Assembly (NCBI GenBank): GCA_019058275.1
Contig: JAHLVW010000103.1
Coordinates: forward strand, 1 to 64,000
Source of the DNA: Candidatus Heimdallarchaeota archaeon
GTDB taxonomy: Archaea; Asgardarchaeota; Heimdallarchaeia; JABLTI01
Direction of reading: 5' to 3'
DNA length: 64,000 nt
Shown here: in pieces, positions 1 through 55,200 of the stretch
Position numbering within the stretch: position 1 is the stretch's first letter
Layout of the letters: each line of letters opens with the position of its first letter
The notes under the pieces: generated by a model
The model's input: the letters and a program-made list of their open reading frames with translations, nothing else
What the model was told of the DNA's origin: nothing
Databases searched by the model: none
Program-made: the position numbers and the translations under genes

Positions 1-152
1 CCTCTGTAATGCTCAAACTCAGTTTGAGTGGCGGTCTTTTAACGGAGGGTTTTTCCCTTCCGTCTCATTGACCCTTTTTGTAGGTGGTTTGTATAACCTC
101 GTGTAATTTTCCAGTTGGGCTAGAAAGAAGCGTGAGTTTGGAACTGTTTTTT
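1..152 (+). repeat. Repeat family R1 copy A (putative 16S rRNA 3' trailer; truncated by window edge)
   Basis: Near-identical to 7304-7453. Position 1 corresponds to the last 3 nt of the GGATCACCTCCT motif seen in copy B. Contains nested hairpins and ends in a T-tract. Confidence 0.9.
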
Positions 153-162
153 CTGGTTATTA

Positions 163-416
163 TTAGTTAACAGTTTTTCTTATTCCTTGAAATGATTCGA
201 TGAATAACAAGAACAAACTTATTGACAATAGCAAGAGAATAAATCCTATAGCTATTGGAATGTAGCTAGCATAAGGTAACCATCATATTAACCACCAATA
301 ACTTAGTTTAATTGAAATACTAGTAATAAGTAATGCTAGGGATAAAAGACTAAAACAGAATGGTTGAAAAAGCGATTATATTTATCTTTATTTTAGGTTT
401 ATCTTTCATTTTTCTT
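163..416 (-). pseudogene. 3' fragment of a paralog of the membrane protein gene 10576-11289
   Basis: Aligns by eye with 10576-10825 at high identity, with small indels. The 5' two thirds of the gene are absent. Confidence 0.9.
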
Positions 417-420
417 CTCG

Positions 421-650
421 CTATTTATCAATAGGTTCAATACTTTTTTGATAGTTTTTAGATCTCCTTTTTCTTATGGTCTTTATATTCTTCTCCTTTC
501 TTATCTTTTAATAAGTCAATTAAGTCTCGTAATGAAGCTTTTCTGGTCAAACGTAGAATTAAATCACTGAAACTCTCAGAATCTTTTTTTAGTTCTAGTA
601 GTTTTTCATAAGCGTTTTTTGAGAGTGAACTTGATTTTTAATCCTTTTTT
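421..650 (-). pseudogene. VapB-type (DUF217-like) antitoxin, start region disrupted
   Basis: Manual translation SLSKNAYEKLLELKKDSESFSDLILRLT fits the archaeal VapB pattern. An in-frame TAA lies just upstream. Not in the ORF track. Confidence 0.65.
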
Positions 651-784
651 ATCACCAAAGTCAGTTTTCTTATATTAATATATGAACTTATTGAATTTAA
701 TACATTGTATATAATTAAAACATAAAAAGAAATTTCAAGAAGATATAAAACCTACTTATAATGTTATTTTGATCATTACAAATT

Positions 785-2650
785 TTATTTTTTACCTTTC
801 TTAAATTTAGTTGCAGTGAATATACTATAAATTACAAGCATTGAAAATGTTATTATCCAAGAAAATCCTGAATTGATTTCTGTTGTACTTGTAGGATAAC
901 CTGCTTTTGTGATAAACTCTTTTGCTTTAGTAAGATTATAATTATATCTTATGATATTAGGATACAACCACATCCCCATATTAGGAAATATTGGGTAATC
1001 ATTAATGAAAAAACTTCCATTATAAACGATATTATTGATTTCTTCTCGATCTATAGCATAGGATACTGCTTTCCTAATAGCTAATCCAATTGAAATTGAA
1101 GGATCATTTATACATGGTAATCTGTTGCCAAAAAATGGTTTTGTTTCTTGTAGATTGTAAGCCAAGAGATTAAGACTAGTCTGAATCTTTCTTTGGATAT
1201 CATAATTTGGATTTATTTGATATTGGTCAATATCATGATAACTAGCAATTAAATTTAATATATCAATAGAGCCATTATTAAATTGCTCAGTAGCAGTCTC
1301 TATATTTTCAATTATTTTTATCTTTAGTTGACTTAAATTCCAATTAGTCCCGAATCTATTTACAAAATCCATTCCAGATTTATCTATTGTATCATTCAAT
1401 AACCAGCTGCTATTATAATTAATAAGTTGAATTTCACTATTAGGGATAATATTATTGACTATTAAAATACTTGTACCAAAACAGTTATCTGAGAATTTTT
1501 GCCAAGATATATGATTAATGTCTGGAGTAACACCATCAACTATTTGTGTTTGATTTAAATAATGTTCAGGAAGAATATTTTGAGTTAGTGTTGACAGGAA
1601 TCTCGGATATAGATCATTTTCAATTGTTGTTAGATCACCATCAATGAAAAAATCAATGTTATAGTCATCAATAATTGACATTTCTTCAATCCACGTATAA
1701 CCTTCAGGATTTGTTGCTAGATTTTTCCAGCAATAATAAGTGAAGAAAACATCATCAGCAGTTAAATATTCATTAGTATAAATCCCATCTGGATCTTGTT
1801 GCCATTTAATTCCTTCTCTTAGATGAAATCTTATATGTGTGTCATTTATGTATTCCCAATTTGATGCTAGATGAGGCCAAACATTTTGATAGTCGTCATA
1901 CAATATAAGAGGGTCCATTGTTAATTCATTTACAAAAGCAGAAGTAAAGTCATTCGAGAATAAAGGATTAAAATCTGTCCAATTAGATTTACTTATAATT
2001 AATTCATTAGTTGAATTTTGATTTGAATGTAAAGATGTCCATTTCATTTTACCCCAAGACTGTTTAATCCCTTCTGTGATATTGTAACCTGAAAGGGTTG
2101 ACCAAATTGCTTCATGGTACCATATACCAAATGTATACAATGCAGGATTTATCTTATCCATCAAATATTGTTGCCAATTCCAATAGTGTTGAATTCGTTC
2201 ATTTGAGTTAGGAGGCATTAAATTTCTTCCATAATCTAAATACCATTGATTCAAACCAGTATCATATGTTGAATCATAATCTAATGAAGAATCATAGGAA
2301 AAGATGTTGAGTGTACCATTTTCTCCATAAACATTTAAAAAATCAGGATCATTTCCCGATCCAACAAGACCAAAATAGCTTATGTCAAAATTTTTAAAAA
2401 ATAATATTTCATTTATGAAATCTGACCCACTTAAGAATTCAGCTTCAATATTTATACCAATTTCCTGAAGCTGGTTCTTAATCAAATTTGCTATTTCCCT
2501 ATGATAATCAAAATCCCTCATCTTCAATACAAGTGTAAAATATGTGTCAGAAGTAACTGCATCATAAGTTATACTTTGATAAGGTGATAAAAAGAGCATC
2601 ATGTATAAGGTAATAATAATATAATTCTTACATTTAAACAATCTTCTCAT
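785..2650 (-). CDS. ABC transporter family-5 (peptide/nickel) solute-binding protein, apparently circularly permuted, C-terminal membrane anchor
   Basis: Motifs PHLASNWE, FHLREGIKW, LTADDVFFT, IRKAVSYAIDR, YNLTKAKEFITKAG. Signal peptide, C-terminal TM and basic tail. Confidence 0.85.
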   Translation of the reverse strand: MRRLFKCKNYIIITLYMMLFLSPYQSITYDAVTSDTYFTLVLKMRDFDYHREIANLIKNQLQEIGINIEAEFLSGSDFINEILFFKNFDISYFGLVGSGNDPDFLNVYGENGTLNIFSYDSSLDYDSTYDTGLNQWYLDYGRNLMPPNSNERIQHYWNWQQYLMDKINPALYTFGIWYHEAIWSTLSGYNITEGIKQSWGKMKWTSLHSNQNSTNELIISKSNWTDFNPLFSNDFTSAFVNELTMDPLILYDDYQNVWPHLASNWEYINDTHIRFHLREGIKWQQDPDGIYTNEYLTADDVFFTYYCWKNLATNPEGYTWIEEMSIIDDYNIDFFIDGDLTTIENDLYPRFLSTLTQNILPEHYLNQTQIVDGVTPDINHISWQKFSDNCFGTSILIVNNIIPNSEIQLINYNSSWLLNDTIDKSGMDFVNRFGTNWNLSQLKIKIIENIETATEQFNNGSIDILNLIASYHDIDQYQINPNYDIQRKIQTSLNLLAYNLQETKPFFGNRLPCINDPSISIGLAIRKAVSYAIDREEINNIVYNGSFFINDYPIFPNMGMWLYPNIIRYNYNLTKAKEFITKAGYPTSTTEINSGFSWIITFSMLVIYSIFTATKFKKGKK

Positions 2651-2870
2651 TTTCCCACCTATGTGATATATTCCACTTTTAGTTATTTAAATTTAAAGTA
2701 TTTTTTATAAATCTTTTTCAGATAATACTAGTAAAATAATACCGTTTGAATAATATCTGATAAAGTTAAACATAATTCATTAAATAACAATAAAATTTGT
2801 ATATTCTAGCAATAAACTAACAAGTATTAGAATTCATATGTAATTACTCATCTTATGGAAAAGTAAATGG

Positions 2871-3281
2871 GTGGGATTGTTGAAAAAAAAGCAACTTATG
2901 AAGAGAACACTCTTATTTTTATTTCTAATCGGGTTATTTGTTGGTTGTATCTCAATTATGCATGTCAAAGCGAGTGGATCACGATATTATTGTGGATATG
3001 TGTTAGATCGTGTTACACATAGGTCAATAAAAGACGTTTATGTGACATTATGGGTGTCAGTTTTTCCAGACCCAACACATGGAGAAATAAGGGATTCTGA
3101 TTATACAAACAGTTTAGGATATTACTACGTTTCATGGTCACCATGGTTACCAGGAAATAATATCTATAGTGTTTTTATTCATTATGAAAAAGATGGATAT
3201 ATGTCTAGATGGATCGAACTTGAATATCCTGAGCACCCCGGTGGATTATTACCTTTAATGTATTTAAGACACTATTATTGA
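2871..3281 (+). CDS. Small secreted protein, carboxypeptidase-regulatory/transthyretin-like fold
   Basis: Signal peptide, then G-x-V-x-D...V-T-L...T-N-S-L-G-Y-Y...K-D-G-Y pattern. Confidence 0.55.
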   Translation: MGLLKKKQLMKRTLLFLFLIGLFVGCISIMHVKASGSRYYCGYVLDRVTHRSIKDVYVTLWVSVFPDPTHGEIRDSDYTNSLGYYYVSWSPWLPGNNIYSVFIHYEKDGYMSRWIELEYPEHPGGLLPLMYLRHYY

Positions 3282-3444
3282 TTCTTAAATACCCTTTTCT
3301 TTTTTTTCTATCATATATTAGTTCTTATTTAAATAAATTAATAATAAAATATTAATTAAATAAAAAAAAATACTGAACTTTTGTTTTTAATTATTAAATA
3401 TTAATATAAAAATATTATAAAGTAACTAGTTATAATAAACACTC

Positions 3445-6297
3445 GTGATAGTGATGGGGTTTGGGTATTACTGTAAAATTGCTTTATTAAACATTTGGAA
3501 TGGGAGAAGAAACGCTATAATATATTTCGTTGGAATAACAATTGCTATAACTACTATTACATCAATAAATATGTGGGTAACAGCATCTGAATCGTTTGTT
3601 ATTCATGATTTTGTTGAAGAGCTGGATTATGAATTAAAGGTAAGAACATTTGACACTGAAAAAATATCTCAAGTACAAAATTGGTTAAACAATGAGTCAT
3701 TAATAAGCACAACTGATAAACTCTACTACAATTTAGCATTCTTTAATGCTGAAGATAAAAGTCCTTTCTATAATTTTTTTCCATTTGATAATCAAGATGA
3801 TATGAATGATCGTGTGTCAATGTCCACCTTATTATTGTTCCCAAGAAATGCTATTTCTAGGATTGCTAATCAATTCACTGTAATGGGAGAATTTGTTTTA
3901 GAAGTTAATGAAGTATTAATTAGTGAACATCATGCTAATATACTTGAAATTGTATATGGTCAACCAATTTATCCCGGAATGGCTTTAAATTTAAGTGTTT
4001 GTAAACAAAGTACTTGGGGAGGAATTTATCTCTTCCAATACTCACCAAGACATTTCTATAACATTACTGTTAAGGGAATCTATAAGATAAAACCAACTAC
4101 ATCAATGTTACAAGAATCATTCTCAATGGACTTTCTTGAGGATTCTATTATTTTCTTAAAAGAAAATCTAATCAAAGTAGATATTGAACAAATGGAAGAT
4201 AATGGTCTTATCCCATTTGTTGTAGCTAAAAGCAATTCGGATCTTTTGATGGAAGATGGTGTTCAAGGAATCATACCAAAATTGGATGACATTCAGTTAA
4301 GGTTAGTTACTTCATTTACAAATGTATTTTCCACAATTTTAGATACACCATTTAGTATTCTTTCACAAGAATATATCAGATCAAAAATGGTTTATATCAT
4401 AATGCTGCCTGTTATTGTTTTAGGATTAATGCAAGCAGTACTTACTTCATTCAATGTACTGGAAAGTCGAAAGAAACAAATGGCAATTTTCATTGATCGA
4501 GGTGGACAAAAAGGGCAAATACTCACATTCTTTTTATTAGAATTCATAATTATAACTATCATTGCAATTGCTTTCTCAATTTTGAGTTCATATTTGTTAG
4601 CTCCAATAATTCCTTCATTTACTCAATCAAGTTTTTCTAGTAGTAAATATTTGTTTTATTTGACACGATTACAATTTCCAGTAATTCCATTAATTTTATC
4701 CTCAGTAGCTATAATTGTTCTTTCATCAGTCTTCGTTCTAATTAAAGTAAATAGACTATATTCCGAAAACAAACTTTCAGAAAGATCAATTGAATTCAGA
4801 AAAAAATTAGAGAAAAATGTATCCTTAATACTCTTAGGAATTATTGCTGTGACATTAATAACTATTCTTATTATGTTAATTATACCATTTAAACAAGAAA
4901 TTTCTGATATTTACTACTTTTCAACACAACAAACGAAAGTAGCAGCATATATCTTGGCATTACTATTAACACTACAAATGATAATTGTCATTTTTGCTTC
5001 AGTTGGATCATTCAAAATATTCGGATCACTGGGAAAGTTATATGCTAGAATTTTCAAACACAATTCACTTTTTTTAACACATAATTTCAGACGAACAAAA
5101 CATAAGTTAAATACATTATTTATTATTATAATAATGTTGAGTAGCTCAATATTTTTCTCACTAATAATATTAGCAACCTTACAAAATAACGAAAAAGTAT
5201 CTGACTATTACAATAATGGTTCAGATATACGCGTAGAGACCATTAAGACAAGCGATGATTTCTATGAAAATATCACCAATATCAATGGCATAGAAGAAGC
5301 CATGCCTATTTATCAAATAACAGGGCAACATGGTTATGATGTTTTAACTATATATGGCATTAATCCAGAAAAGTATGCAAGAATTGGTCGATGGGATGAG
5401 AGTAGCTTTAGAAATGATTTAGCACCTATAGAAAAAAGTGGTTACACATTTACTCAATGGCTTTCGGAATTAGAAAATCAACACTATGGAGTATTTATTA
5501 GCGATAGATTGGCAAAGAAGCATGAGTTGTCAATTGGTGAAATTATAACCATACATCAAATACAAACAGAAACAACAATTGGAGATGATACATTTATTAT
5601 TGTTGGAATAATTCATTCTGCTCCTGGATTAGGATTAGCATCAGGAAAAAACATGATAATGAATCAATTAAGTGAAGAATATATTCTTATTAGTGATTGG
5701 AAAATGCAACAGGATTATGAAGTTAAGATTGCAAGATTATTTTTTGCTAAAACAATGGGAAATTTCCCCTTAAATCAAATTGAAGAAGAAATTGCTTTAC
5801 TAGATCCGGTTGTTGAAATAAACCATCCTTCATCTGAAGGATCAGTAACAGAATTCATAGATGAATTTATTCCAAAATTATCAAACTTCATCTTTGCACA
5901 ATTGACTTTTCTTTTTATCATTGGAACATTAACCATTGTTACAAATACTATTTTTATACTAAATCAAAGAAAGCAAAACATTGCGATTATGCTTGCTTTA
6001 GGAAAAACTTATTGTAGTGTATTAAAACTTATCATTTTGGAATTAATAATTCTTATCATAAGTGGAATTATTGTTGGCTTATTAATAAGTTTGCCAGTGG
6101 TTTATTTAACAATTCATTTAGCACAACCTTTCTTAGCAAATTACATTATTATCCCCTTCAATGTGGCTTTCAACCATTTATGGATGATAATATCAACTAC
6201 AGTAATAATAGGTTTAGTTTTTGTACCAATAATCCCTTTCTTATCGAGATTCAGAAAACAAAAGTTAGTAGAAAGTATATATCATAAATGGTTGTAA
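3445..6297 (+). CDS. FtsX/MacB-like ABC permease (duplicated domain)
   Basis: Two FtsX-like units (RKKQMAIFIDRGG; RKQNIAIMLALG) with large extracellular loops. Confidence 0.8.
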   Translation: MIVMGFGYYCKIALLNIWNGRRNAIIYFVGITIAITTITSINMWVTASESFVIHDFVEELDYELKVRTFDTEKISQVQNWLNNESLISTTDKLYYNLAFFNAEDKSPFYNFFPFDNQDDMNDRVSMSTLLLFPRNAISRIANQFTVMGEFVLEVNEVLISEHHANILEIVYGQPIYPGMALNLSVCKQSTWGGIYLFQYSPRHFYNITVKGIYKIKPTTSMLQESFSMDFLEDSIIFLKENLIKVDIEQMEDNGLIPFVVAKSNSDLLMEDGVQGIIPKLDDIQLRLVTSFTNVFSTILDTPFSILSQEYIRSKMVYIIMLPVIVLGLMQAVLTSFNVLESRKKQMAIFIDRGGQKGQILTFFLLEFIIITIIAIAFSILSSYLLAPIIPSFTQSSFSSSKYLFYLTRLQFPVIPLILSSVAIIVLSSVFVLIKVNRLYSENKLSERSIEFRKKLEKNVSLILLGIIAVTLITILIMLIIPFKQEISDIYYFSTQQTKVAAYILALLLTLQMIIVIFASVGSFKIFGSLGKLYARIFKHNSLFLTHNFRRTKHKLNTLFIIIIMLSSSIFFSLIILATLQNNEKVSDYYNNGSDIRVETIKTSDDFYENITNINGIEEAMPIYQITGQHGYDVLTIYGINPEKYARIGRWDESSFRNDLAPIEKSGYTFTQWLSELENQHYGVFISDRLAKKHELSIGEIITIHQIQTETTIGDDTFIIVGIIHSAPGLGLASGKNMIMNQLSEEYILISDWKMQQDYEVKIARLFFAKTMGNFPLNQIEEEIALLDPVVEINHPSSEGSVTEFIDEFIPKLSNFIFAQLTFLFIIGTLTIVTNTIFILNQRKQNIAIMLALGKTYCSVLKLIILELIILIISGIIVGLLISLPVVYLTIHLAQPFLANYIIIPFNVAFNHLWMIISTTVIIGLVFVPIIPFLSRFRKQKLVESIYHKWL

Positions 6298-6299
6298 TA

Positions 6300-7008
6300 A
6301 TTTATGTTTTTGTTCTCACAACCTAGCTTCTTTTTATACAGATACTGAAAGATATTGAGAAGCAATTTATTGTCAAAAACGAATTCTTGAATTAAATCCT
6401 GAAAACTTTAATTCTCTAGCTAGTGTTGGTTTCCATTCATTACAGTTAAATGAATCGAAAAGATCAAAACTTCACTATCTGAAAGCTTTGAAGTTAGATC
6501 CAACCAACTATTTTATTTTGCAATTTCTAGTAAAGTTGTACTTGGTAGATTAGGACTTTCATAGAGCACTTACTTTTCTGTATCATTCATTAGTTCATTT
6601 TCCTGACGAACCTAAAATTCTGTTTGATCTGGTTTATGTAATAGCAAACTTGAAATAAGATGATAAAGTAATAGATTTTCTATAACAATGCTTGAGCATT
6701 GCTCCTGAATACTTTCTAAGAATAGATCGAGAATCCATTTTCCGACTTTTACTAAAGCATCTGAAATGTCATTACAAAAATTGGGTTATATTGAATCTAT
6801 TTCCTATTTAGATTTCAGTCTTTTAGAAAAGGTAAAGGATAATATAGAAAAAGAAAAACAAAATCAATTTGGTAAACTAATCACATTTGAAGATTTTTTG
6901 AAAAACCATTGGGAGCATTTAATAGTTATAATTCTTAGTGTTTTAGTTGGTAGTATTTTAGGTGCAATAATCACTATTCTTACAAATTATTTCGGACTTG
7001 TGAAATAA
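6300..7008 (+). pseudogene. Degraded TPR protein with C-terminal TM; last fragment is ORF 6766-7008
   Basis: Broken-frame fragments AIYCQKRILELNPENF and LHYLKALKLDPTNY are TPR-like. Confidence 0.55.
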
Positions 7009-7291
7009 AATATTAAAATCTATATTTTGATTGTCCGTACAAGAAAATAATTTGTTTTTAATTGTACTTATCAAACAGCAACACTTCTAATTAGAGTATC
7101 GAAGAGTTAGGAAAACAAATTAACCATTAAGGCTATTGAAATTATTAAATTGAAAAACTTGCTTTTTCCCACAATCATTCCTCACTTTTACAATGATCGC
7201 TTTTTATTTTTAAGCTTATAATTTTTCACACTCAATCTTTTTTGTTAAAAGAAGTATTTTTATAAGGAAAACTAACCTAGTAAAAGATTTA

Positions 7292-7453
7292 GCTGGATCA
7301 CCTCCTCTGTAATGCTCAAACTCAGTTTGAGTGGCGGTCTTAAAACAGAGGGTTTTTCCCTTCCGTCTCATTGACCTTTATGTAGGTGGTTTGTATAACC
7401 TCGTGTAATTTTTCAGTTGGGCTAGAAGTAGTGCGAGTTTGAAACTGTTTTTT
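7292..7453 (+). repeat. Repeat R1 copy B, starting with the 15-nt 16S rRNA 3'-terminal sequence
   Basis: GCTGGATCACCTCCT at 7292-7306 followed by a ~150-nt match to 1-152. The upstream sequence is not rRNA-like. Confidence 0.9.
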
Positions 7454-7603
7454 TATTCATTTTGTGATTCAAAAAATCAATATTGGAATGTGAAAAAATA
7501 GCTGTTTGTTATTTATTATACACTCATTTTATATTGAATAGAATTCATTATTTATGATATTGAGAAATATCTTATCATTAGATTCGATGCACAAGGGATT
7601 TTT

Positions 7604-10555
7604 ATGTCAGATGAGAATTTCTATTTGGATTATAAACCCAAATACAAAATATTTCATGAATTAATGGCTAAAAGAATAAAAAACATACTGTTAGTTTCAA
7701 GTATTTATGACAGCTTCATGCTTGAAGAAGATGGTCGTCTTTCTGATCAAGTATATGAAGAATTTCAAAATCTCAATCTACGAACCCTCCCACGCATTAC
7801 CCATGTGTCATCAGCTCAAGAAGCATTAGTATTGCTTAAAGAAAATCAATTCGACCTTGTTATAACAATGTTAAGACTAGGAGATATCGATGCTTTTACA
7901 TTTGGTCAAAATGTAAAGAAAATCCAAGACATTCCTGTTGTTCTTTTATTGAGTAGCGTTGTTGAAACAAATTATCTCCCTGAAATGAACAATCGTAAAG
8001 GAATCGATCGAATTTTTGCCTGGAATGGTGATTCAAAGATCTTTGTTGCTATTATTAAAAACCTTGAGGATCAATACAATGTTGATTATGATACTACAAA
8101 AGGATCAGTAAGGCTATTCATCTTAGTTGAAGATTCAATACGTTTCTATTCTTTGATGTTACCTGAGCTCTATTCCGAAATTATGAAACAAACCCATCAA
8201 TTACTTGTCGAAGGTACAACCGATTTTCAAGATCTCATGCAACTGAGAGCAAGACCAAAGATATTATTGGCTCAAACCTATGAAGAAGCAATAAGCTATT
8301 TTAAGAAATATAAAGAACATATTTTAGGAATTATATCTGATATTGAATATCCTCGCAAAGGTACTTTGGATAAAAATGCCGGTTTTACATTTGCTAAAGA
8401 AATCATAAAAAATACAATAAATATGCCAATTGCATTAACATCAACGAAACTTGAATATAAACAACAAGCATTCGATCACAAATGTTCCTTTATACATAAA
8501 GGTTCACAATTTCTAGTTTGGCATATTCGACAGTGGATTCTTGAGAATGTGGGATTTGGAAATTTCGTTTTTAAATTACCCAATGGGGAAGTTGTTGGTA
8601 GAGCTAGAAACATTATAGATTTTTATCATCAAATTAAAACAATCCCAATTGAATCATTAATTTATCATGGAAAAAATGATCAATTTTCAAATTGGTTAAA
8701 TGCTCGAGGAGAGTTTGAGATTGCTCGTCAGCTTAAACCTCGTAAAGTGTCGGAATTTACAACCAATGAGGATCTACGAACCTTTCTAATTAATATCATT
8801 GAAAAAATTGTCTTTGAGAGAACAAGAGGTATCATAAATGACTTCAATCGTGAAAATTACCATCCTGAAATGCTTTTCATAAGATTAAGACCCGGTTCTC
8901 TAGGTGGAAAAGGTCGAGGTCTTGCGTTTCTCATGTATCTTATTAGCAAGTATTATCATGAAGAAGAATTTCCAGATGTAACTTTACAAATACCAAAAAC
9001 TATAGTGATTGGGACAAGCGAGTTTGATAAATTTATAGAAGATAATAATCTCTTTGAATTTGCACTATCAGATGCTTCAGATGAGGAAATTAGGGAAAAA
9101 TTTATTGCTTCAAAACTCTCAAGCGAACTTCGCAATGATATAGAGTTTCTAGTTAGAGATATTACACAACCATTAGCAATTCGCTCTTCAAGTCTTCTTG
9201 AAGATTCAGCTTATCAACCATTTGCAGGAATTTTCAATACCTATATGATTCCTAATAATGATGACAGCTTGAAGAAAAGAATAGAGCAAATCTTTACAGC
9301 AATTAAATTGGTATATGCTTCTCCCTTTTTAAGAAAAGCAAAATCCTATGCTAAATCTGTTGGACAAACTATTGAAGAAGCGAAAATGGCTGTGGTTATT
9401 CAGATTGTTGTAGGAAATGAACACAATAATAGATACTATCCTGATTTCTCAGGGACAGCATCTTCTTATAATTATTATCCTATTGGGGAATACATGAAAC
9501 CTGAAGATAGAATTGCTCATCTAGCTTTGGGTTTAGGAAAAATCGTTGTAGAGGGTGGAGAAACTTTAAGATTTTGTCCGAATTGCCCAAAAATTAACTT
9601 CTTCTCAACGCCAGATCATATGTTAAAAAATAGTCAGAAATATTATTATGGTGTTAATCTTGGTCAATCTGATTTCAATATTCATTTAGATGATCCATTC
9701 TTGACGAAATTTGATTTAGGTGATGCAATTGAGGATAAGACGTTAGAATCCATAGCAGATAATTATGATTTTAATTCTCAATCATTAAAAATTGGTTATC
9801 ATAGCGAAGGTTCTCCAGTTATAACCTTTAGTAAGCACCTGAAATTAGGAATTTTTCCAATAGCTGAACTAGTAGCTAGGATCATGGAACTTGGTGAAAA
9901 AGCAATAGGTAACTCTATTGAAATAGAATTTGCTGGAAATTTTAGAAAAACTTCGAAAGAGAAACATTCCTTTAATCTCTTACAAATACGTCCATTTTTA
10001 CGACGAGAAGCTCTAATAGAAAAAATCGAGAAAGTAGAAAAAAACAGAAGTTTTGTATATTCAACGCAAATATCTGGAAATCTCATTAGAAAAGATATCG
10101 AGCATATTGTCTATATTAAACCAGATGCTTTTGATAATCTTCAAACATTAAAAATCGTTCAAGAAATAAATGCAATGAATGAATTACTAACAAAAGAAAA
10201 AATCCCCTATATTCTAATTGGATTTGGTAGATGGGGAACAGCAGATAGATTTCTAGGAATTCCAGTGAAATGGAATGATATTTCTGGAGTTAAAGTAATG
10301 GTTGAGGCTTCATTAAAGAATTTCCAAATTGACTTCTCACAAGGAAGCCATTTCTTTCAGAATATAATTACTTCTAATATTGGTTATTTCTATATAGATT
10401 TCAAATCTGATGAACATATCCTAGATTGGGAGTGGTTATCTAAACAGAAAACAATTACTGATAAAAAATATGTTCGACATGTTAAAACAAAAAAACCTTT
10501 AATTATTAAGGTAGATGGAAAAACAAGAGAAGGTATAATTATTAAACCTAAATAA
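7604..10555 (+). CDS. Receiver-domain + PEP synthase/PPDK N-terminal (ATP-grasp) domain protein
   Basis: GSLGGKGRG, LAIRSSSLLED, FAG, MAVVIQ, EIEFA and LLQIRP motifs. N-terminal REC-like segments. No C-terminal PEP-binding barrel. Confidence 0.85.
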   Translation: MSDENFYLDYKPKYKIFHELMAKRIKNILLVSSIYDSFMLEEDGRLSDQVYEEFQNLNLRTLPRITHVSSAQEALVLLKENQFDLVITMLRLGDIDAFTFGQNVKKIQDIPVVLLLSSVVETNYLPEMNNRKGIDRIFAWNGDSKIFVAIIKNLEDQYNVDYDTTKGSVRLFILVEDSIRFYSLMLPELYSEIMKQTHQLLVEGTTDFQDLMQLRARPKILLAQTYEEAISYFKKYKEHILGIISDIEYPRKGTLDKNAGFTFAKEIIKNTINMPIALTSTKLEYKQQAFDHKCSFIHKGSQFLVWHIRQWILENVGFGNFVFKLPNGEVVGRARNIIDFYHQIKTIPIESLIYHGKNDQFSNWLNARGEFEIARQLKPRKVSEFTTNEDLRTFLINIIEKIVFERTRGIINDFNRENYHPEMLFIRLRPGSLGGKGRGLAFLMYLISKYYHEEEFPDVTLQIPKTIVIGTSEFDKFIEDNNLFEFALSDASDEEIREKFIASKLSSELRNDIEFLVRDITQPLAIRSSSLLEDSAYQPFAGIFNTYMIPNNDDSLKKRIEQIFTAIKLVYASPFLRKAKSYAKSVGQTIEEAKMAVVIQIVVGNEHNNRYYPDFSGTASSYNYYPIGEYMKPEDRIAHLALGLGKIVVEGGETLRFCPNCPKINFFSTPDHMLKNSQKYYYGVNLGQSDFNIHLDDPFLTKFDLGDAIEDKTLESIADNYDFNSQSLKIGYHSEGSPVITFSKHLKLGIFPIAELVARIMELGEKAIGNSIEIEFAGNFRKTSKEKHSFNLLQIRPFLRREALIEKIEKVEKNRSFVYSTQISGNLIRKDIEHIVYIKPDAFDNLQTLKIVQEINAMNELLTKEKIPYILIGFGRWGTADRFLGIPVKWNDISGVKVMVEASLKNFQIDFSQGSHFFQNIITSNIGYFYIDFKSDEHILDWEWLSKQKTITDKKYVRHVKTKKPLIIKVDGKTREGIIIKPK

Positions 10556-10575
10556 ATTGTTGTGTTTTTTGGCTA

Positions 10576-11289
10576 TTAATAGTTGGCAGCTTTTCTTATT
10601 CCTTGAAATGATTCGATGAATAACAAGAACAAACTTATTGACAATAGCAAAAGAATAAATCCTGTAGCTATTGGAACGTAGCTAGCATAGGGTAACTTCC
10701 CTATTAACCACCAGTAATTTAGTTTAATTGAAATACCAGTAATAAGTAATGCTAAGGATAAAAGACTAAACAGAATGTTTGAAAAAGCGATTATCTTTAT
10801 TTTAGATTTATCTTTCATTTTTCTTAGCAGCATTGATCCAGAAATAACGTATAATATTGAGAAAATTGGAATAAAGATAAAACCGAATAATGCTAAAGGA
10901 ACTACACTCCATTTTTGAAAAGAAAAACAATTCTCACCATATTCTATTGACTGTTGATTTTTTATCTGTTTATTATGTCTTACTAGAAACCAGATAATAC
11001 TTCCAACAAGAACAACTTGATAGCTAAAGAAAATAGTTACTAATGGTATTAACACAATACTTGTGTCATATATAGTTTTCAAAACAGGTCGGATACCAAT
11101 TAGAAAGAAAAAGATGAAATACCATACAAAAAGGTAAAAACTAAAAAAGATCACATTAAATGAAGCAATTAATTGCTTATCACTAAATGAATGTTTAATC
11201 GTTCTGTTAAGAACAATTATTGAAATAATTAACAGCCAAGTAATACTATTTGTCCATATACGAATACTCGTACTCGAAACCATTCCCAT
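10576..11289 (-). CDS. Hypothetical multi-pass membrane protein
   Basis: About 6 hydrophobic helices. A paralogous fragment lies at 163-416. Confidence 0.7.
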   Translation of the reverse strand: MGMVSSTSIRIWTNSITWLLIISIIVLNRTIKHSFSDKQLIASFNVIFFSFYLFVWYFIFFFLIGIRPVLKTIYDTSIVLIPLVTIFFSYQVVLVGSIIWFLVRHNKQIKNQQSIEYGENCFSFQKWSVVPLALFGFIFIPIFSILYVISGSMLLRKMKDKSKIKIIAFSNILFSLLSLALLITGISIKLNYWWLIGKLPYASYVPIATGFILLLLSISLFLLFIESFQGIRKAANY

Positions 11290-11480
11290 GCTGGAACTGA
11301 ATCTAAATTGATGTTGTTAAGAAAGCTATCTAAATTAATTAGATTGACAATATTCATTTATTTCCCCAAGTATTTTTCCCTTCTATACAAGTAAGTATTA
11401 TTAATTTCTAAATATTTGGATTGCTATTTTTTTTCTTTAAAAACTCCAACAAGCAAATTAGGTTATTAGTTATCCCTTTT

Positions 11481-11514
11481 TATTTTTCAGTTGGACTAGT
11501 AGGAGAGTGAGTTT
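11481..11514 (+). repeat. Repeat R1 copy E (3' core only)
   Basis: TATTTTTCAGTTGGACTAGTAGGAGAGTGAGTTT matches the 3' core of R1. Lies 18 nt beyond the hicA stop. Confidence 0.65.
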
Positions 11515-11532
11515 TTTATATTAAATACCTGA

Positions 11533-11775
11533 TTAACTAAGCATATCAATGAGTTTTTCTTTAGAGATATTATTCCAAATTGCCACTTTTGATAAAATAT
11601 CCTTTAATGTACCTTTTGCTATTTCCTTATGCATAACAATCGTAATATGATGTTCTCATGCATCCCCCTTTTTCAGAAGTCTAACATGACTCCCTTTTTG
11701 TCTTACAACTTGATAACCAAGTTTACTCAAAACCTTAAGCAGTTTCTTACCACTAACTACTGGAAGCTTTGGCAA
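11533..11775 (-). pseudogene. hicA: HicA mRNA interferase toxin with in-frame TGA
   Basis: Manual translation MPKLPVVSGKKLLKVLSKLGYQVVRQKGSHVRL...DA*EHHITI...KGTLKDIL. Has the GSH catalytic motif. TGA at 11656-11658. Overlaps the hicB end. Confidence 0.85.
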
Positions 11776-11986
11776 TTGCTTGCACCTCAAATTCTGAAAG
11801 AGTTAAGATTCTGATTGTTTCTGTTTGTAATTCTTCCTCAAAGTGTACTTCAACTGCTTCTTTGATGTTCTTTCTTAATTCATCCAAAGTTTTCCCTTGA
11901 GTAAAAATATCAGCATCTATTCCTCTTGCACACCAAAACTGATCTTCATCTTGGTAAATTTCGAATTTTATAAGGCGCATCTTCAT
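11753..11986 (-). CDS. hicB: HicB-family antitoxin
   Basis: TQGKTLDELRKNIKEAVEVH signature; coupled to hicA. Confidence 0.85.
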   Translation of the reverse strand: MKMRLIKFEIYQDEDQFWCARGIDADIFTQGKTLDELRKNIKEAVEVHFEEELQTETIRILTLSEFEVQAIAKASSS

Positions 11987-12120
11987 TCACCATCTTAGCT
12001 ATATACTGCTTCTTAATTATAAACTAATTTATTATTGAACTTTTTTCCTTCTTTTGTCAAAGTTATACTTGATAATCTCTTTTGTACTTCTTCAGATTCA
12101 GTTCAAGTTACTGTCTTATT

Positions 12121-12227
12121 TGGATGATTTTCCCTTCCGTCTCAATGACCTTTATGTAGGTGGTTTGTATAACCTCATGTAATTTTTCAGTTGGCTAGAA
12201 AGAGCGTAAGTTTGAAACTATTTTTTT
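12121..12227 (+). repeat. Repeat R1 copy C (lacks the 5' hairpin)
   Basis: TTTTCCCTTCCGTCTCAATGACC...GTTTGAAAC matches copies A and B. Abuts the stop codon at 12228. Confidence 0.9.
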
Positions 12228-12941
12228 TTATTCTTTTTGTGATTCAAAATTAATATTGGATTGTGATTTAGTATTTGTTGATTTCTTACTTTTTTGAATA
12301 ATAAAAGTAACTAGTGGTACCATGACAATAATAGTGAATGCTATAGAAACAAAAACATAAAGTAAATCGTAACTTAAGATAGATGATCCCGCTAGCAAAT
12401 AAAATGCAACAATAACCAATGAACCGATGATAAGACTTATTGAAATTGCAATATTAACTTGTTTTATTAGTTTTCCTTGTGATTCTGATTTATGTCCAAT
12501 AACATTAATGCTAGCACACGTTCCTATTCCTCCCAAATCACAACAACATTCTAATAAAATTGCTCTTGCATCAGTGTCATATTCAATTTTATCAGGAATT
12601 TGTTTAGAAATTTCTCTTGAACGTTTTCTAGCTACTTTTTTTTGTAATGAACCACATGAAGTGCAATATTTATATTCATCAAAGGTTGGTTGTTTGCATG
12701 TTTTGCAATTGACAATAGAGATCAGTTCTTTGTAAAATTCATTCCAGATATCATTTAATCTTTCACTACATCTCTCACAAAAATATTTTAACTCTGAACC
12801 TGTTTTACTTAATGTGAATGAATTTTTTTTTCCACATTTTGGACAAAAAACAAAATCATCTGTTAGACTTCGCAATTGATTTTCTTTCTTATACTCAATT
12901 TCCTCATCAAGATCAATGGTATCATCAAACGAATATGACAA
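12228..12941 (-). CDS. Double zinc-ribbon protein with two C-terminal TM helices
   Basis: CPKC, CERC, CKTC and CTSC pairs; two hydrophobic helices. Confidence 0.75.
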   Translation of the reverse strand: MSYSFDDTIDLDEEIEYKKENQLRSLTDDFVFCPKCGKKNSFTLSKTGSELKYFCERCSERLNDIWNEFYKELISIVNCKTCKQPTFDEYKYCTSCGSLQKKVARKRSREISKQIPDKIEYDTDARAILLECCCDLGGIGTCASINVIGHKSESQGKLIKQVNIAISISLIIGSLVIVAFYLLAGSSILSYDLLYVFVSIAFTIIVMVPLVTFIIQKSKKSTNTKSQSNINFESQKE

Positions 12942-13004
12942 TAATCATCCCATCCCTAATCAAATATTTATTTTCTATTATAATATGTTTTCTATTTTTC
13001 ATTC

Positions 13005-13055
13005 GTTGTTTGTATTACCTCGTGTATTTTTTCGGTTGGATAGTAAGAGTGAGTT
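13005..13055 (+). repeat. Repeat R1 copy D (3' half, diverged)
   Basis: GTTGTTTGTATTACCTCGTGTATTTTTTCGGTTGGATAGTAAGAGTGAGTT; overlaps the stop codon of 13054-13914. Confidence 0.8.
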
Positions 13056-13914
13056 ATTCTTCTTTTTTTGCCATAAGAGTGAATACCAATGGTAATTGTA
13101 TTTCAGAATGATCATATCTCCAGTATCCATCTACAGATTTCTTTAGAAATGGAAATCTTTGAAATGGAGCTTTGGAAAATTCGTTAAAGAACTTTATTTG
13201 TAAACCAGCACTAATTATTGAATTAATTACATCAGATAAACTATGAGACCATTCATAGCCATCTAATTTTTCGGTTGTTTTATTTCCATCTGCAAAAGAA
13301 CCACTCACAGTGTAACCAATTGGTTCTGGATCATGGAAATAATTATTTTTTAGAACGAAGTCATTAGGATCATCCCAATCAAACACCCAGATAAAGCGAT
13401 GGAATTCAGCAATGTAAAAAATCCCCCCCAGTTTTAAGAACTGAGCAATAATCTCAGCCCAACGCTTTAAATCATTCAACCAGCAAAGAACACCATAAGA
13501 AGTGAATACAATATCATATTTTTCATCAAGATTTTTTGGCAAATCATAGATATTTGATTCCACAAAAGTTGCTTCTATTTTTGCATTTTTAGCTAACTGT
13601 CTTGCTAAATTAATAGCTTTTCCTGAAATATCTACACCAGTTACTTTTGCTCCCTGTCGAGCCCAGGATAAGGTATCAAGTCCAAAATGGCATTGAAGAT
13701 GTAACAATGATTTCCCCTTTACGAATTTTCCAAGTTCATCAAGTTCAATTGAATTTAGAGAAGTTTTACCTTTGAGAAATTCTTTTGTTTGATAAACTTC
13801 TGATTGATAATTTACTTTTGCAAATTCATCCCACATTTTCTGGATGGCATCATAATATTGTCTTGATTCCTTCATACTATATTTTAAAGAGGAAGTGTCT
13901 AAATTACTTCTCAT
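13054..13914 (-). CDS. Class I SAM-dependent methyltransferase
   Basis: LLHLQCHFGLDT motif I variant, VTGVD, YDIVFTSYG, LKLGG. Confidence 0.9.
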   Translation of the reverse strand: MRSNLDTSSLKYSMKESRQYYDAIQKMWDEFAKVNYQSEVYQTKEFLKGKTSLNSIELDELGKFVKGKSLLHLQCHFGLDTLSWARQGAKVTGVDISGKAINLARQLAKNAKIEATFVESNIYDLPKNLDEKYDIVFTSYGVLCWLNDLKRWAEIIAQFLKLGGIFYIAEFHRFIWVFDWDDPNDFVLKNNYFHDPEPIGYTVSGSFADGNKTTEKLDGYEWSHSLSDVINSIISAGLQIKFFNEFSKAPFQRFPFLKKSVDGYWRYDHSEIQLPLVFTLMAKKEE

Positions 13915-13952
13915 TAATCTAATTTCAGAAATTCAAAAAAAAGTGGATAAAA

Positions 13953-14993
13953 CTAAGGTTTTATCACCGTTCTAAAATCTGCCTTGAAATCCTTCAACTG
14001 ATGATGGACTTCATTTATAGCATTAGCTTCAAGTGGAACAACCTTAGTTACTAAGTGACTTAAATCTAGTTTTCCTTGTTCTGCAAAATCTAAAAGCATC
14101 GGTAATTCGGATAACAAGTGATCGGAACAACCAATTATTTCTTTTTCTTTGCAAATTGCTTCGTAAGAGTCGACCTTAAATGGTTCTCTTGTGATTCCAA
14201 CCAATCCTAACCGTCCGAATCGAGATAAAGATCTAGTTCCTTGATCCAAAGTCAATGGAAGACCAACAAGTTCCAAAGCAACATCCACTCCGACTCCATT
14301 CGTTAATTCCATTATTTTTTCCACTGGATCGTTTTCCTTAGCATTTATCGGAATAGCACCCATTTTTTTCGCGGATTGTAATTTTACTGGATCAATATCC
14401 ACTGCATAAATATCTCGAGCAGCAAACGCTTTCGCTAATTGAAAAGCAGAAACACCTAACCCTCCGAAACCAAAGATCGCTAATGTTTCTCCTGGTTGAA
14501 ATCGAGTTTTTTTCAGTGCATGAAATGAAGTTGCTGTGGAACACATCATAACTGCAGCATGTTCAAATGAAACTGAATCAGGAAGCTTGTAGATTCCTCT
14601 AGAAGGTACCGAAATGTATTCTGCATACCCTCCATTAACATCTTTCCCTATCATTTTTCCTTTTTCACAAAACTGCTCTGATCCTTTAACACAAAAATGA
14701 CATTTTCCGCAAGTAATCATATAATTAACACAAACTCGATCACCAATCTGGAATCTGGACACATTTGCTCCGATTTCTTCAATAACTCCTGCAACTTCAT
14801 GTCCTAAAGAAATTGGTAGATATCCCACAGAAGAAACCCCATCTCGATAGTGAACATCTGAATGGCAGATTCCTGCTGCTTTAATTTTCACTAATACTTC
14901 ATCTGCTTGATGTTCTGATTTTGGAACTTTTCGGTTTTCCAAATCCTTATCAATTTCAATTAATTGAACTGCTTTCATAACTCGTAATATCAT
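13953..14993 (-). CDS. Zn-dependent alcohol dehydrogenase (MDR family)
   Basis: CHSD, GHE, CxxCxxC-x7-C and GFGGLG. Confidence 0.92.
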   Translation of the reverse strand: MILRVMKAVQLIEIDKDLENRKVPKSEHQADEVLVKIKAAGICHSDVHYRDGVSSVGYLPISLGHEVAGVIEEIGANVSRFQIGDRVCVNYMITCGKCHFCVKGSEQFCEKGKMIGKDVNGGYAEYISVPSRGIYKLPDSVSFEHAAVMMCSTATSFHALKKTRFQPGETLAIFGFGGLGVSAFQLAKAFAARDIYAVDIDPVKLQSAKKMGAIPINAKENDPVEKIMELTNGVGVDVALELVGLPLTLDQGTRSLSRFGRLGLVGITREPFKVDSYEAICKEKEIIGCSDHLLSELPMLLDFAEQGKLDLSHLVTKVVPLEANAINEVHHQLKDFKADFRTVIKP

Positions 14994-15165
14994 ATTTCTT
15001 ATTTAAAATTGTTTTTTACACTTGAAGAAGGGTCGTTTTTTTATCAAGAAAACGAGTGTGTTCATTATTAATCTACAAAAAGAGAAACTAATGGTTTTAC
15101 ATAGTTTCAATTTTTGCAATATATGATTTCAATGAAATTGGATTTCCGGGTAATGTGGGCAAAGC

Positions 15166-16110
15166 TTATTTTTTAGAAATATTAGCTGAGAAGGCATTAG
15201 CATTTAACCATCCTTCTCGTTCTAGGATTTCGTCAGGCATCTTAAGAATTTTCAAAACTTTATGACGACAAGTGAAAGTATGAGGTACAGGACCTAAATA
15301 TTCACCCATAGCATGACCTAAAACTTTCTTTGAAGAATTAGTACTAACTGTGATTCTCTTACCTCTGAGTACCTCAACCTTAGGATGATTTATATGAGTA
15401 CCTTTTCCTAATTTCGAAGAAGTGATTAATGATTCTATAAAGGTGGTATCTCCCACAATCATAACATCCAATAATCCATCATCAATAACAGCATCTGGAG
15501 TAACCATCATTCCACCACCTATCCTTTGACCGTTACCAATCATTGTTGTTAATGATTTTATATCTTTAACAATTGTACCATTATCGATATCAATATGTAA
15601 ATGTCGTGGACGATATCTGAATATTGATCTTACTAAAGCAAAATAGTAGATCATTCTTGTATTTTTATCAGTAACTTGCTCAGAGACATCTGCATCTAAT
15701 CCAACACCAGCAACTCCCATGCAGAATCGAGCACCATCATTAATGTCAATGCAATCAATTACTCGTTCCTCTCTTTTTTGGAGCATTTCAATAAGATCAT
15801 CTAAGTTATGTGTTTGACGAATATTGAATGCATTATCATTTCCCCGTCCAACTGGTAGAATTGCTAATGTACTCTTAAATCCTGCTTGTCCAATTCCGGT
15901 AATAACTTCATTAATTGTACCATCACCACCAAAAACAACAATAAGCTTATGATCATCGCTTGCTTCTCTAGCAATTCCTATGGCATCATTTATTGATTTG
16001 GTCCATTCAACTTCAAAATCAAAACCAGCATTTTTTAAAGCTTCATTATACTTAGGCCACTTCTTTTTTGCTTTTCCACCACGTGTAGTTGGGTTACAAA
16101 TAATCTTCAA
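15166..16110 (-). CDS. Diacylglycerol/lipid kinase family protein (YegS/BmrU-like)
   Basis: NP, GGDGTINE, PVGRGND, GGG and DDGLLD motifs. Confidence 0.9.
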   Translation of the reverse strand: MKIICNPTTRGGKAKKKWPKYNEALKNAGFDFEVEWTKSINDAIGIAREASDDHKLIVVFGGDGTINEVITGIGQAGFKSTLAILPVGRGNDNAFNIRQTHNLDDLIEMLQKREERVIDCIDINDGARFCMGVAGVGLDADVSEQVTDKNTRMIYYFALVRSIFRYRPRHLHIDIDNGTIVKDIKSLTTMIGNGQRIGGGMMVTPDAVIDDGLLDVMIVGDTTFIESLITSSKLGKGTHINHPKVEVLRGKRITVSTNSSKKVLGHAMGEYLGPVPHTFTCRHKVLKILKMPDEILEREGWLNANAFSANISKK

Positions 16111-55154: not shown

Positions 55155-55200
55155 GTAGAATCACTGCACACACTTCTTCTTTAAGGTCTAGAAGTGTTAA
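55155..55200 (+). repeat. Repeat family R2 copy 1
   Basis: GTAGAATCACTGCACACACTTCTTCTTTAAGGTCTAGAAGTGTTA. Confidence 0.8.

Follow-up and report, generated by a model that had tools for sequence, protein, structure and literature searches.

The window analysed here comprises the first 64,000 nucleotides (nt) of contig JAHLVW010000103.1 (C98), which belongs to a metagenome-assembled genome (MAG) of a Heimdall-group archaeon (G000; 4.12 Mb, 30% G+C, 92.8% complete, 6.8% contamination). It opens at the 3' end of a 16S rRNA gene and continues, for the first 13 kb, as an array of accessory-gene cassettes punctuated by direct copies of the end of that gene and its 3' trailer. Judged from the arrangement of these copies within and between genomes, the architecture was shown to be one of apparent repeated insertion and exchange at the rRNA tail, with the tail seemingly regenerated on each occasion. 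The array was interpreted, with confidence a little above even, as the product of accretion and exchange of cassettes anchored on the 16S 3' end, driven by homology and without an integrase.

The anchor itself was located on a second contig. The only small subunit (SSU) rRNA gene in G000 was archaeal and occupied C115:92-1613 on the minus strand (Rfam RF01959, 1326 bits); beyond it, 91 nt remained to the contig end, and the reverse complement of this end overlapped window positions 1-93 with one mismatch. Because of this overlap, the 16S gene was taken to end at window position 3, its last 3 nt being positions 1-3 (plus strand) and the rest being C115:92-1613. An initial interpretation of the window by itself (hereafter, the sequence-only reading) had placed a 16S terminus at about this position, and the Rfam match and overlap bore this out. 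The join between C115 and C98 is probable, being drawn from the overlap rather than assembled, and the repeat is evidently where the assembler broke off both contigs. There was no tRNA gene, 23S gene or Rfam family downstream of the 16S gene within the window, and the gene was therefore considered unlinked.

Five copies of the 16S end and trailer (A to E) were spread across the first 13 kb, all in direct orientation on the plus strand, as the sequence-only reading had described. Copy A (4-152) is the working 16S trailer; a hairpin follows the 16S terminus closely, the 3' strand of the processing stem occupies approximately 79-153, and an oligo-T run lies at 147-152. Copy B (7292-7453) comprises the last 15 nt of the 16S gene, as an exact match to its terminal 15-mer (7292-7306), followed by a full trailer and an oligo-T run at 7448-7454. 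Copy D (12067-12227) was full length from about 12067, and its first 14 nt are a decayed version of the 16S end. Copies C (11458-11514) and E (12995-13055) were reduced to the core; C was worn, while E overlapped the stop codon of a methyltransferase gene and was the last copy before a conserved flank. In addition, a residual trailer-copy end of 15 nt, corresponding to the T-run region, was present at 10561-10575 (plus strand). Alignment of A (1-152) with B (7304-7453) gave 92.8% identity over 152 nt (E = 7.5e-58), and of B (7354-7493) with D (12128-12266) gave 88.7% identity (E = 2.3e-45). Against the 16S end plus trailer, C (from about 11458) and E (from about 12995) scored 49 and 64 respectively, where shuffled controls scored 21-22 +/- 3.3 with a maximum of 34.

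The copies had been thought to be variably truncated at their 5' sides. A core shared on the 3' side was indeed evident, but a uniform truncation was not, because D was full length with a decayed 5' half: compared with B, its 5' half was 62% identical and its 3' half 90%. Uneven decay thus accounts for part of the effect, and the decay was mostly from G or C to A or T. A whole-genome search with an nhmmer profile matched only the C98 array and the 16S end on C115, and found the repeat nowhere else in G000. A dispersed repeat of the miniature inverted-repeat transposable element (MITE) or repetitive extragenic palindrome (REP) type was ruled out, since the copies were confined to the array, held one orientation and had no inverted termini.

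In archaeal pre-rRNA, leader and trailer form a helix containing a bulge-helix-bulge site, which is cut by the splicing endonuclease. The 16S trailer began with a hairpin, covarying between species, and continued with a leader-complementary stretch (window 79-153), predicted to pair over about 60 bp with the leader approximately 160-280 nt upstream of the 16S gene (cofold energy -70.9 kcal/mol). Since this stretch pairs with the leader and ends at the oligo-T run, which is a probable terminator, the repeat is, on these folding predictions, a complete 3' external spacer, i.e., the 3' strand of the processing stem together with its oligo-T end. The predicted interruption in the stem, which is like a bulge-helix-bulge, was a 6-bp helix set between bulges of 2 nt and 3 nt, with no canonical 3-4-3 form recognised. 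All internal copies kept their complementarity to the leader well above that of shuffled sequence; duplex energies were -54.5 kcal/mol for A, -59.7 for B, -46.8 for D, -37.0 for C and -39.7 for E, against shuffle means of -23 to -35, with z-scores of about -4 to -6 for A, B and D. Even in the most worn copies, a part of about 45 nt survived, situated just 3' of the predicted bulge. The repeat core is the 3' strand of this archaeal processing stem, complementary to the 16S leader; only copy A, however, is placed to act in processing, and the other copies are orphans at cassette joints.

The leader was also affected. A 160-nt piece of it (-278 to -119), belonging to the 5' strand of the processing stem, was duplicated 9.4-9.8 kb upstream with 91% identity (L057:11300-11458 vs L057:1733-1892, on C115), the two copies being separated by two FtsX-like genes (980 and 959 amino acids) and a double ATP-binding cassette (ABC) ATPase gene; relatives had one leader copy only. 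No leader-strand copies were found inside cassettes, the single extra copy being that upstream of the 16S gene, and the notion of cassettes as units flanked by bulge-helix-bulge motifs was rejected for that reason. A relationship between the upstream ABC-transporter genes and the FtsX-like gene of the first cassette, as halves of a split cluster, was rejected because there was no significant similarity between them.

Comparison with related genomes showed that the array is not peculiar to G000. Arrays built from the genome's own 16S trailer were present in five of ten congeners (G004, G005, G007, G009 and G010), and in G009 and G010 the 16S gene was assembled contiguously with its array. The same architecture was seen in a metagenome contig (L053), and scans of genomes and metagenomes with the core recovered further arrays from the same genus only. 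Trailer repeats were absent from two genomes of the sister genus (G053 and G015) with 15 kb assembled behind the 16S gene, and from within 4 kb of the 16S gene of G006, which belongs to the same genus but has a different trailer. Congener arrays terminated at a common alcohol-dehydrogenase/methyltransferase flank, and the segments between repeats differed from genome to genome between the 16S gene and this flank, as the sequence-only reading had predicted. In G007 and G005 the arrays were neat successions of single genes, each about 1 kb long and most of them reading the same way as the repeat; in G007 the spacing was about 1.1 kb. Cargo in the relatives included luciferase-like and aldo-keto-reductase genes, S9 and M20 peptidases, several DUF433/DUF5615 pairs, hicAB and surface proteins.

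Parts of the 16S end were also included in copies from other genomes: besides the 15 nt in B and 14 nt in D, there were 16 nt in G009 (possibly more in its second repeat), 23 nt in G010 and at least 25 nt in one copy of G004, and 20 nt in G016, a member of a sister family. The prior suggestion that each event regenerates the rRNA end and trailer was upheld in that internal copies carried 14-27 nt of the 16S end plus trailer. Copy boundaries varied at both ends, with profile starts ranging over 1-116 and ends over 137-162.

Exchange of cassettes was most apparent between G005 and G007. Their flanks were 98% identical, while the two cassettes they had in common were only 83% and 88% identical and differed in order and neighbours. 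In their alignment, full identity (100%) replaced unrelated sequence at a point within the core of the last repeat; a second breakpoint, in the G007 repeat at 1219-1309 when compared with G005 and G004, lay further 3' in the repeat. These comparisons showed that cassettes have been exchanged and reordered between related genomes, rather than inherited vertically. The gene for a receiver and PPDK_N protein in the window had 95% DNA identity to a gene in the G004 array, which is directly followed by a trailer copy. Repeat variants were genome-specific (for example, in G009 and G010), whereas hicAB and DUF433/DUF5615 cassettes were common to several genomes; the copies were therefore thought to be made from, or homogenised with, the resident trailer. 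Contig C26 of G010 (L031, reverse complement 2225-2291 and 3711-3785) carried cores of the G000/G007 type, unlike the array behind its own 16S gene, reflecting either contamination of the bin by a second species or an imported array. Separately, several 16S-type copies (in G004, G005 and G007) and a single 23S-type copy (in G000) had a conserved element of about 25 nt, CGAAAAGTAGATTAATTT, immediately after the T-run (L035:2355-2400, L036:1822-1870, L036:4006-4050, L032:101-150 and C98:120104-120140); in several cases it preceded related surface-protein genes, and it is possibly a cassette-borne promoter or 5' leader.

A second, larger array was anchored on the 23S rRNA gene. This gene is also on C98, outside the window, with its 3' end at C98:102769. 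At least 53 direct copies of the last 0-114 nt of the 23S gene plus approximately 35-60 nt of trailer were identified in G000, extending over C98:102.7-128.8 kb (L063:2655-20000 and L064, equivalent to C98:102655-128831) and onto contigs C35, C38, C75, C80 and C99. The median spacing was 1124 bp, and genes lay in both orientations (by crude calls, 69 cassette open reading frames (ORFs) in the repeat direction and 48 opposite). A 23S-type match was obtained in all ten congeners, with 8-26 copies in six of them and, in G006, the true one only. The 23S-type copies had two main continuations, both resembling true 23S trailers of different species. Two further observations concern the 23S gene. A lone, inverted and partial 23S-type trailer core was noted far from either array, at window 55169-55195 on the minus strand and extending to about 55148; it was an exact match of 27 nt, running into the T-run continuation of many internal 23S-type copies. 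The 3' half of the 23S gene (L063:1-2770, C98:100000-102769) spanned 2770 nt for 1472 model positions, so that about 1.3 kb must be inserted there, possibly as introns.

A single insert occupied the same site in a sister family. In G016, a genome assembled as a single contig, a 6.6-kb insert encoding a leucine-rich repeat (LRR) protein was situated directly behind the 16S gene, bounded by direct copies of 16S positions -20 to +113 that were 95.5% identical. Downstream were a LAGLIDADG gene, outside the repeat-bounded segment, and then tRNA-Arg(TCT). We infer that this insert is the published HeimM2, since it matches the description of that element (PMC8813620). In G026, sister to G016, there were trailer copies at 38 and 40.7 kb downstream, distances compatible with HeimV2 (44 kb), which is reported from the same site. 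HeimM2 and HeimV2 were described in Ca. Heimdallarchaeum as mobile elements in the interval separating the 16S gene from tRNA-Arg(TCT); they were presented as single elements, for which a co-opted homing endonuclease was proposed, and the phrase 'direct repeat' does not occur in the main text of the paper, by a word search (Wu et al. 2022, PMC8813620). The present array resembles them in its site, which likewise follows immediately after the only 16S gene of a Heimdall-group archaeon, and differs in that the site has grown into multi-cassette arrays with a 23S counterpart. An inverted, worn copy of 48 nt of the 16S 3' end was also observed within the left end of the G016 insert, approximately 190-235 nt behind the 16S gene (L061:819-866).

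Repeat-to-repeat spacing in the window ranged from 0.6 to 7 kb, and a different minus-strand gene or remnant followed each copy, its stop codon coming within 0-19 nt: a remnant of gene X (X') after A, a remnant of gene Y (Y') after B, a broken hicA after C, gene Y after D and the methyltransferase after E. The earlier remark that such a stop lies within about 20 nt of every copy was accurate for this array; as a general property it did not hold, being specific to G000, while relatives have genes in either orientation. The segment between A and B contained the X' remnant (145-416, minus strand; 272 nt), which is the 3' part of a gene X paralogue and 89.7% identical to 10561-10825, followed by a family-5 solute-binding protein (785-2650, minus strand), a small secreted protein, an FtsX/MacB-like permease of 950 amino acids (3445-6297, plus strand) and an 80-residue protein. 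Between B and C were the Y' remnant (7454-7493, minus strand), i.e., the last 40 nt or so of a Y-like gene, 85% identical to 12228-12266; the receiver and PPDK_N protein (7604-10555, plus strand); and gene X (10576-11289, minus strand), which encodes a multi-pass membrane protein of 237 amino acids with no Pfam match. The residual 15-nt trailer end described above falls between these last two genes. The segment from C to D contained a hicA-hicB toxin-antitoxin pair (11533-11986, minus strand), in which hicA was split into two ORFs of 44 and 33 amino acids (11656-11790 and 11533-11634). An intact hicA of 85 amino acids was present in the G010 array (L030:15594-15851), and hicB (11753-11986 in the window) was intact in both. 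Between D and E was gene Y (12228-12941, minus strand), encoding a zinc-ribbon membrane protein of 237 amino acids. The conserved right flank common to the congeners (13054-16110, minus strand) consisted of the methyltransferase (13054-13914), a Zn-dependent alcohol dehydrogenase (13953-14993) and a gene encoding 314 amino acids (15166-16110).

Searches for a recombination enzyme were negative on the array contigs examined. The tyrosine recombinase domain PF00589 had six matches in G000, none of them on C98 or C115; there were none on the array contigs of G004, G005, G007, G009 and G010, and none anywhere in G016. The serine recombinase domain PF00239 was absent from C98 and C115, and absent altogether from G009 and G010. 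The statement that the window holds no recombinase was therefore correct for both domains across the whole contig. Among roughly 40 cargo ORFs scanned in six genomes, there was no recombinase domain or integrase remnant. A homing-endonuclease-driven element was not recognised either, given that C98 and C115 had no match to LAGLIDADG_3 and the LAGLIDADG gene of G016 lay outside the insert. Elsewhere in G000 there were 22-24 paralogous ORFs of about 520-565 amino acids with two LAGLIDADG_3 domains and an HTH_3 domain, 33-58% identical to each other (for example, L067:1233-2861, minus strand). This family was expanded in congeners too, including the array-poor G006; its members are probably long-established DNA-binding proteins and not active mobile nucleases, and the age of the family and its presence in G006 make it a poor candidate for an endonuclease of the arrays. 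Site structure was likewise lacking. Folding of 16S-type and 23S-type copies as single-stranded DNA, for either strand, gave z-scores of -0.9 to +1.2, and RNAalifold over 29 cores returned no consensus structure; an attC-like hairpin, or other self-structure of the core, was rejected on these grounds. The conserved 21-mer core had no match in IMG/VR, and no virus or plasmid carrying the site was recognised by this search.

These patterns were evaluated against several explanations. Under the homology-driven explanation, DNA would recombine within the tail sequence, entering either beside the 16S gene or at one of the older copies. Circular or linear DNA bearing a tail copy could insert in the manner of Campbell integration, using the general recombination machinery of the host. 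Each event would set an intact tail beside the rRNA gene and leave the previous tail downstream, where parts outside the core would decay towards A+T. The conserved rRNA end and stem would thereby serve as portable homology, and unequal exchange would reshuffle the cassettes. Restoration of the tail would be enforced by selection, because the 16S gene needs its processing-stem partner beside it. Recombination by homology is considered most likely, and an integrase encoded by the elements less likely, for five reasons: the process follows whichever rRNA end is present, giving two unrelated repeat families and the duplicated leader; copy boundaries vary at both ends and the two breakpoints differ in position; dyads and hairpins are lacking in the repeats; the copies of any one genome are homogenised; and there is no recombinase common to all array-bearing genomes.

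Several observations weigh against this explanation. A short core of approximately 30-45 nt was kept in every copy while its surroundings decayed, and thirty nucleotides is short for homologous recombination. The 23S-type copies all diverge within about 3 nt of one common point; together, a persisting core and a sharp point of divergence would have the look of a dedicated recombination site. The 16S and 23S cores share the motif CTAGA..AAGAAG[CT]G[TC]GAGT, which could equally be an enzyme site or reflect common ancestry of the two processing stems. Cassettes were discrete units of complete genes, as in integrons, their median in the 23S array being about 1.1 kb. The source genome is a MAG with some contamination (as specified above), and its 16S-window join is derived from overlap. 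Lastly, neither the homology nor the enzyme model accounts for the first acquisition of a tail copy by a new cassette.

Alternatively, a dedicated, trans-acting recombinase or nuclease, encoded elsewhere in the genome or on a helper element, might recognise the trailer core site-specifically and insert or excise circular cassettes, as IntI does at attC and attI or as integrases do at tRNA gene ends; this was regarded as a serious rival, though clearly less likely than homology. Conservation of the core amid decay, the sharp divergence point in the 23S family and the motif common to both families are all points in favour, as are cassette sizes and a richness in toxin-antitoxin genes that resemble integrons. 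There were also copies like hybrid att sites, some having the core without the rRNA arm and others having the arm with a different right-hand continuation, and clusters of attC sites without an integrase are known to be served in trans (PMC9668308). Yet no candidate emerged from the searches: there was no tyrosine recombinase on the array contigs examined, no serine recombinase on C98 or C115, no PF00589 in G016 and no PF00239 in G009 or G010. Both copy ends vary, the two breakpoints occupy different positions, and dyads or hairpins are missing from the repeats; moreover, the core is not the same sequence from one species to another (G009, G010) or from one family to another (G016), and the 16S leader was duplicated as well. 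That the arrays might represent an Asgard cassette-capture system without an integron integrase, whose site would be the processing-stem sequence behind the 16S and 23S genes (the cores sharing CTAGA..AAGAAGYGYGAGT) and which an enzyme would serve in trans, is an unlikely but credible proposition on the same evidence.

Remaining explanations fared much worse than recombination at the tail, whether by homology or by an enzyme. Local segmental duplication of a gene with its 3' flank, without import of DNA and with trailers carried as passengers of convergent genes, is improbable. It could explain why A and B are accompanied by remnants of neighbouring genes (X' of 272 nt and Y' of 40 nt), but five different genes follow the five copies, and B and D hold 14-15 nt of the 16S gene itself. 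It was largely refuted by the comparison between genomes, where the cassettes lying between the equivalent 16S gene and flank varied in content and order among congeners, and where divergence of cassettes was far above that of the flank. Still less probable is an RNA-guided or RNA-mediated origin, whereby copies would derive from 3' fragments of pre-rRNA, for instance cut at the bulge-helix-bulge or reverse-transcribed from the 3' end. The common 3' side and variable 5' side of the copies are consistent with this, and the minimal core starts just 3' of the predicted stem bulge; against it, the state of copy D, full length with a decayed 5' half, shows that apparent truncation is partly decay, and copies occur only in ordered arrays beside the source gene. 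An artefact (mis-assembly, a chimeric bin, or a dispersed MITE- or REP-like repeat resembling the 16S end) is hardly tenable, for while a MAG with this level of contamination, contig breaks inside the repeat on both the window and 16S contigs, and cores of another species' type on G010 contig C26 might suggest one, the same architecture recurs in independent MAGs, in metagenome contig L053 and in two genomes assembled as single contigs, each of copies B to E is flanked by unique sequence within one and the same contig, and no other part of the genome contains the repeat.

Gene-capture platforms are established at tRNA and transfer-messenger RNA (tmRNA) gene ends and at integron attI and attC sites, and the array has features of each. 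Islands built by tycheposons in Prochlorococcus grow by tandem accretion at tRNA and tmRNA 3' ends, these being the only sites listed (bioRxiv 10.1101/2020.12.28.424599). As in those islands, direct repeats of the 3' part of a stable-RNA gene separate the cargo and the gene end is regenerated; newcomers push older modules outward, and degraded older copies are scattered through the island. Unlike them, the target here is an rRNA gene, the repeat is mostly external spacer (i.e., the processing-stem strand), copy boundaries vary, and no integrase or fragment of one was found in the modules scanned. The likeness to tRNA-targeting islands advanced in the sequence-only reading is appropriate to the architecture, while any extension of it to the enzyme would be conjecture. 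Sedentary chromosomal integrons and clusters of attC sites lacking integron-integrases (CALINs) have been reported from Archaea also, with enrichment in Asgard archaea (Ghaly et al. 2022, PMC9668308). In common with these, there are long arrays of cassettes of roughly 0.5-1.5 kb, with one repeat each and many toxin-antitoxin genes, the content varies between species, and the array itself is without an integrase. The differences are that IntI and attC hairpin folds were not found here, genes lie in both orientations, the repeats copy the adjacent rRNA end, and the array begins at an rRNA gene rather than at attI. In its working the array is comparable to tRNA/tmRNA accretion islands, and in appearance to a sedentary integron, yet it fails the defining tests of both: integrase, IntI and the attC fold are all missing, and the target is an rRNA gene. 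No published description was found of an rRNA gene end acting as a capture platform without a visible recombinase, the position of HeimM2 and HeimV2 being the only precedent.

Together, the two rRNA-anchored arrays of this genus contain roughly 120 kb or more of fast-changing accessory genes, among them toxin-antitoxin pairs, enzymes and surface proteins, and they probably serve as a major channel for gene flow within the archaea most closely related to eukaryotes. Pipelines designed to find integrons would miss such arrays. Their repeats break MAG assemblies at rRNA genes, which helps to explain why Asgard bins often lack these genes. Should a dedicated enzyme be responsible, the arrays would represent a new recombination system, an analogue of integrons operating on rRNA ends and holding several per cent of the genome. 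If instead there is no dedicated enzyme, conserved rRNA sequence would be acting as portable homology for the exchange of genes across species.

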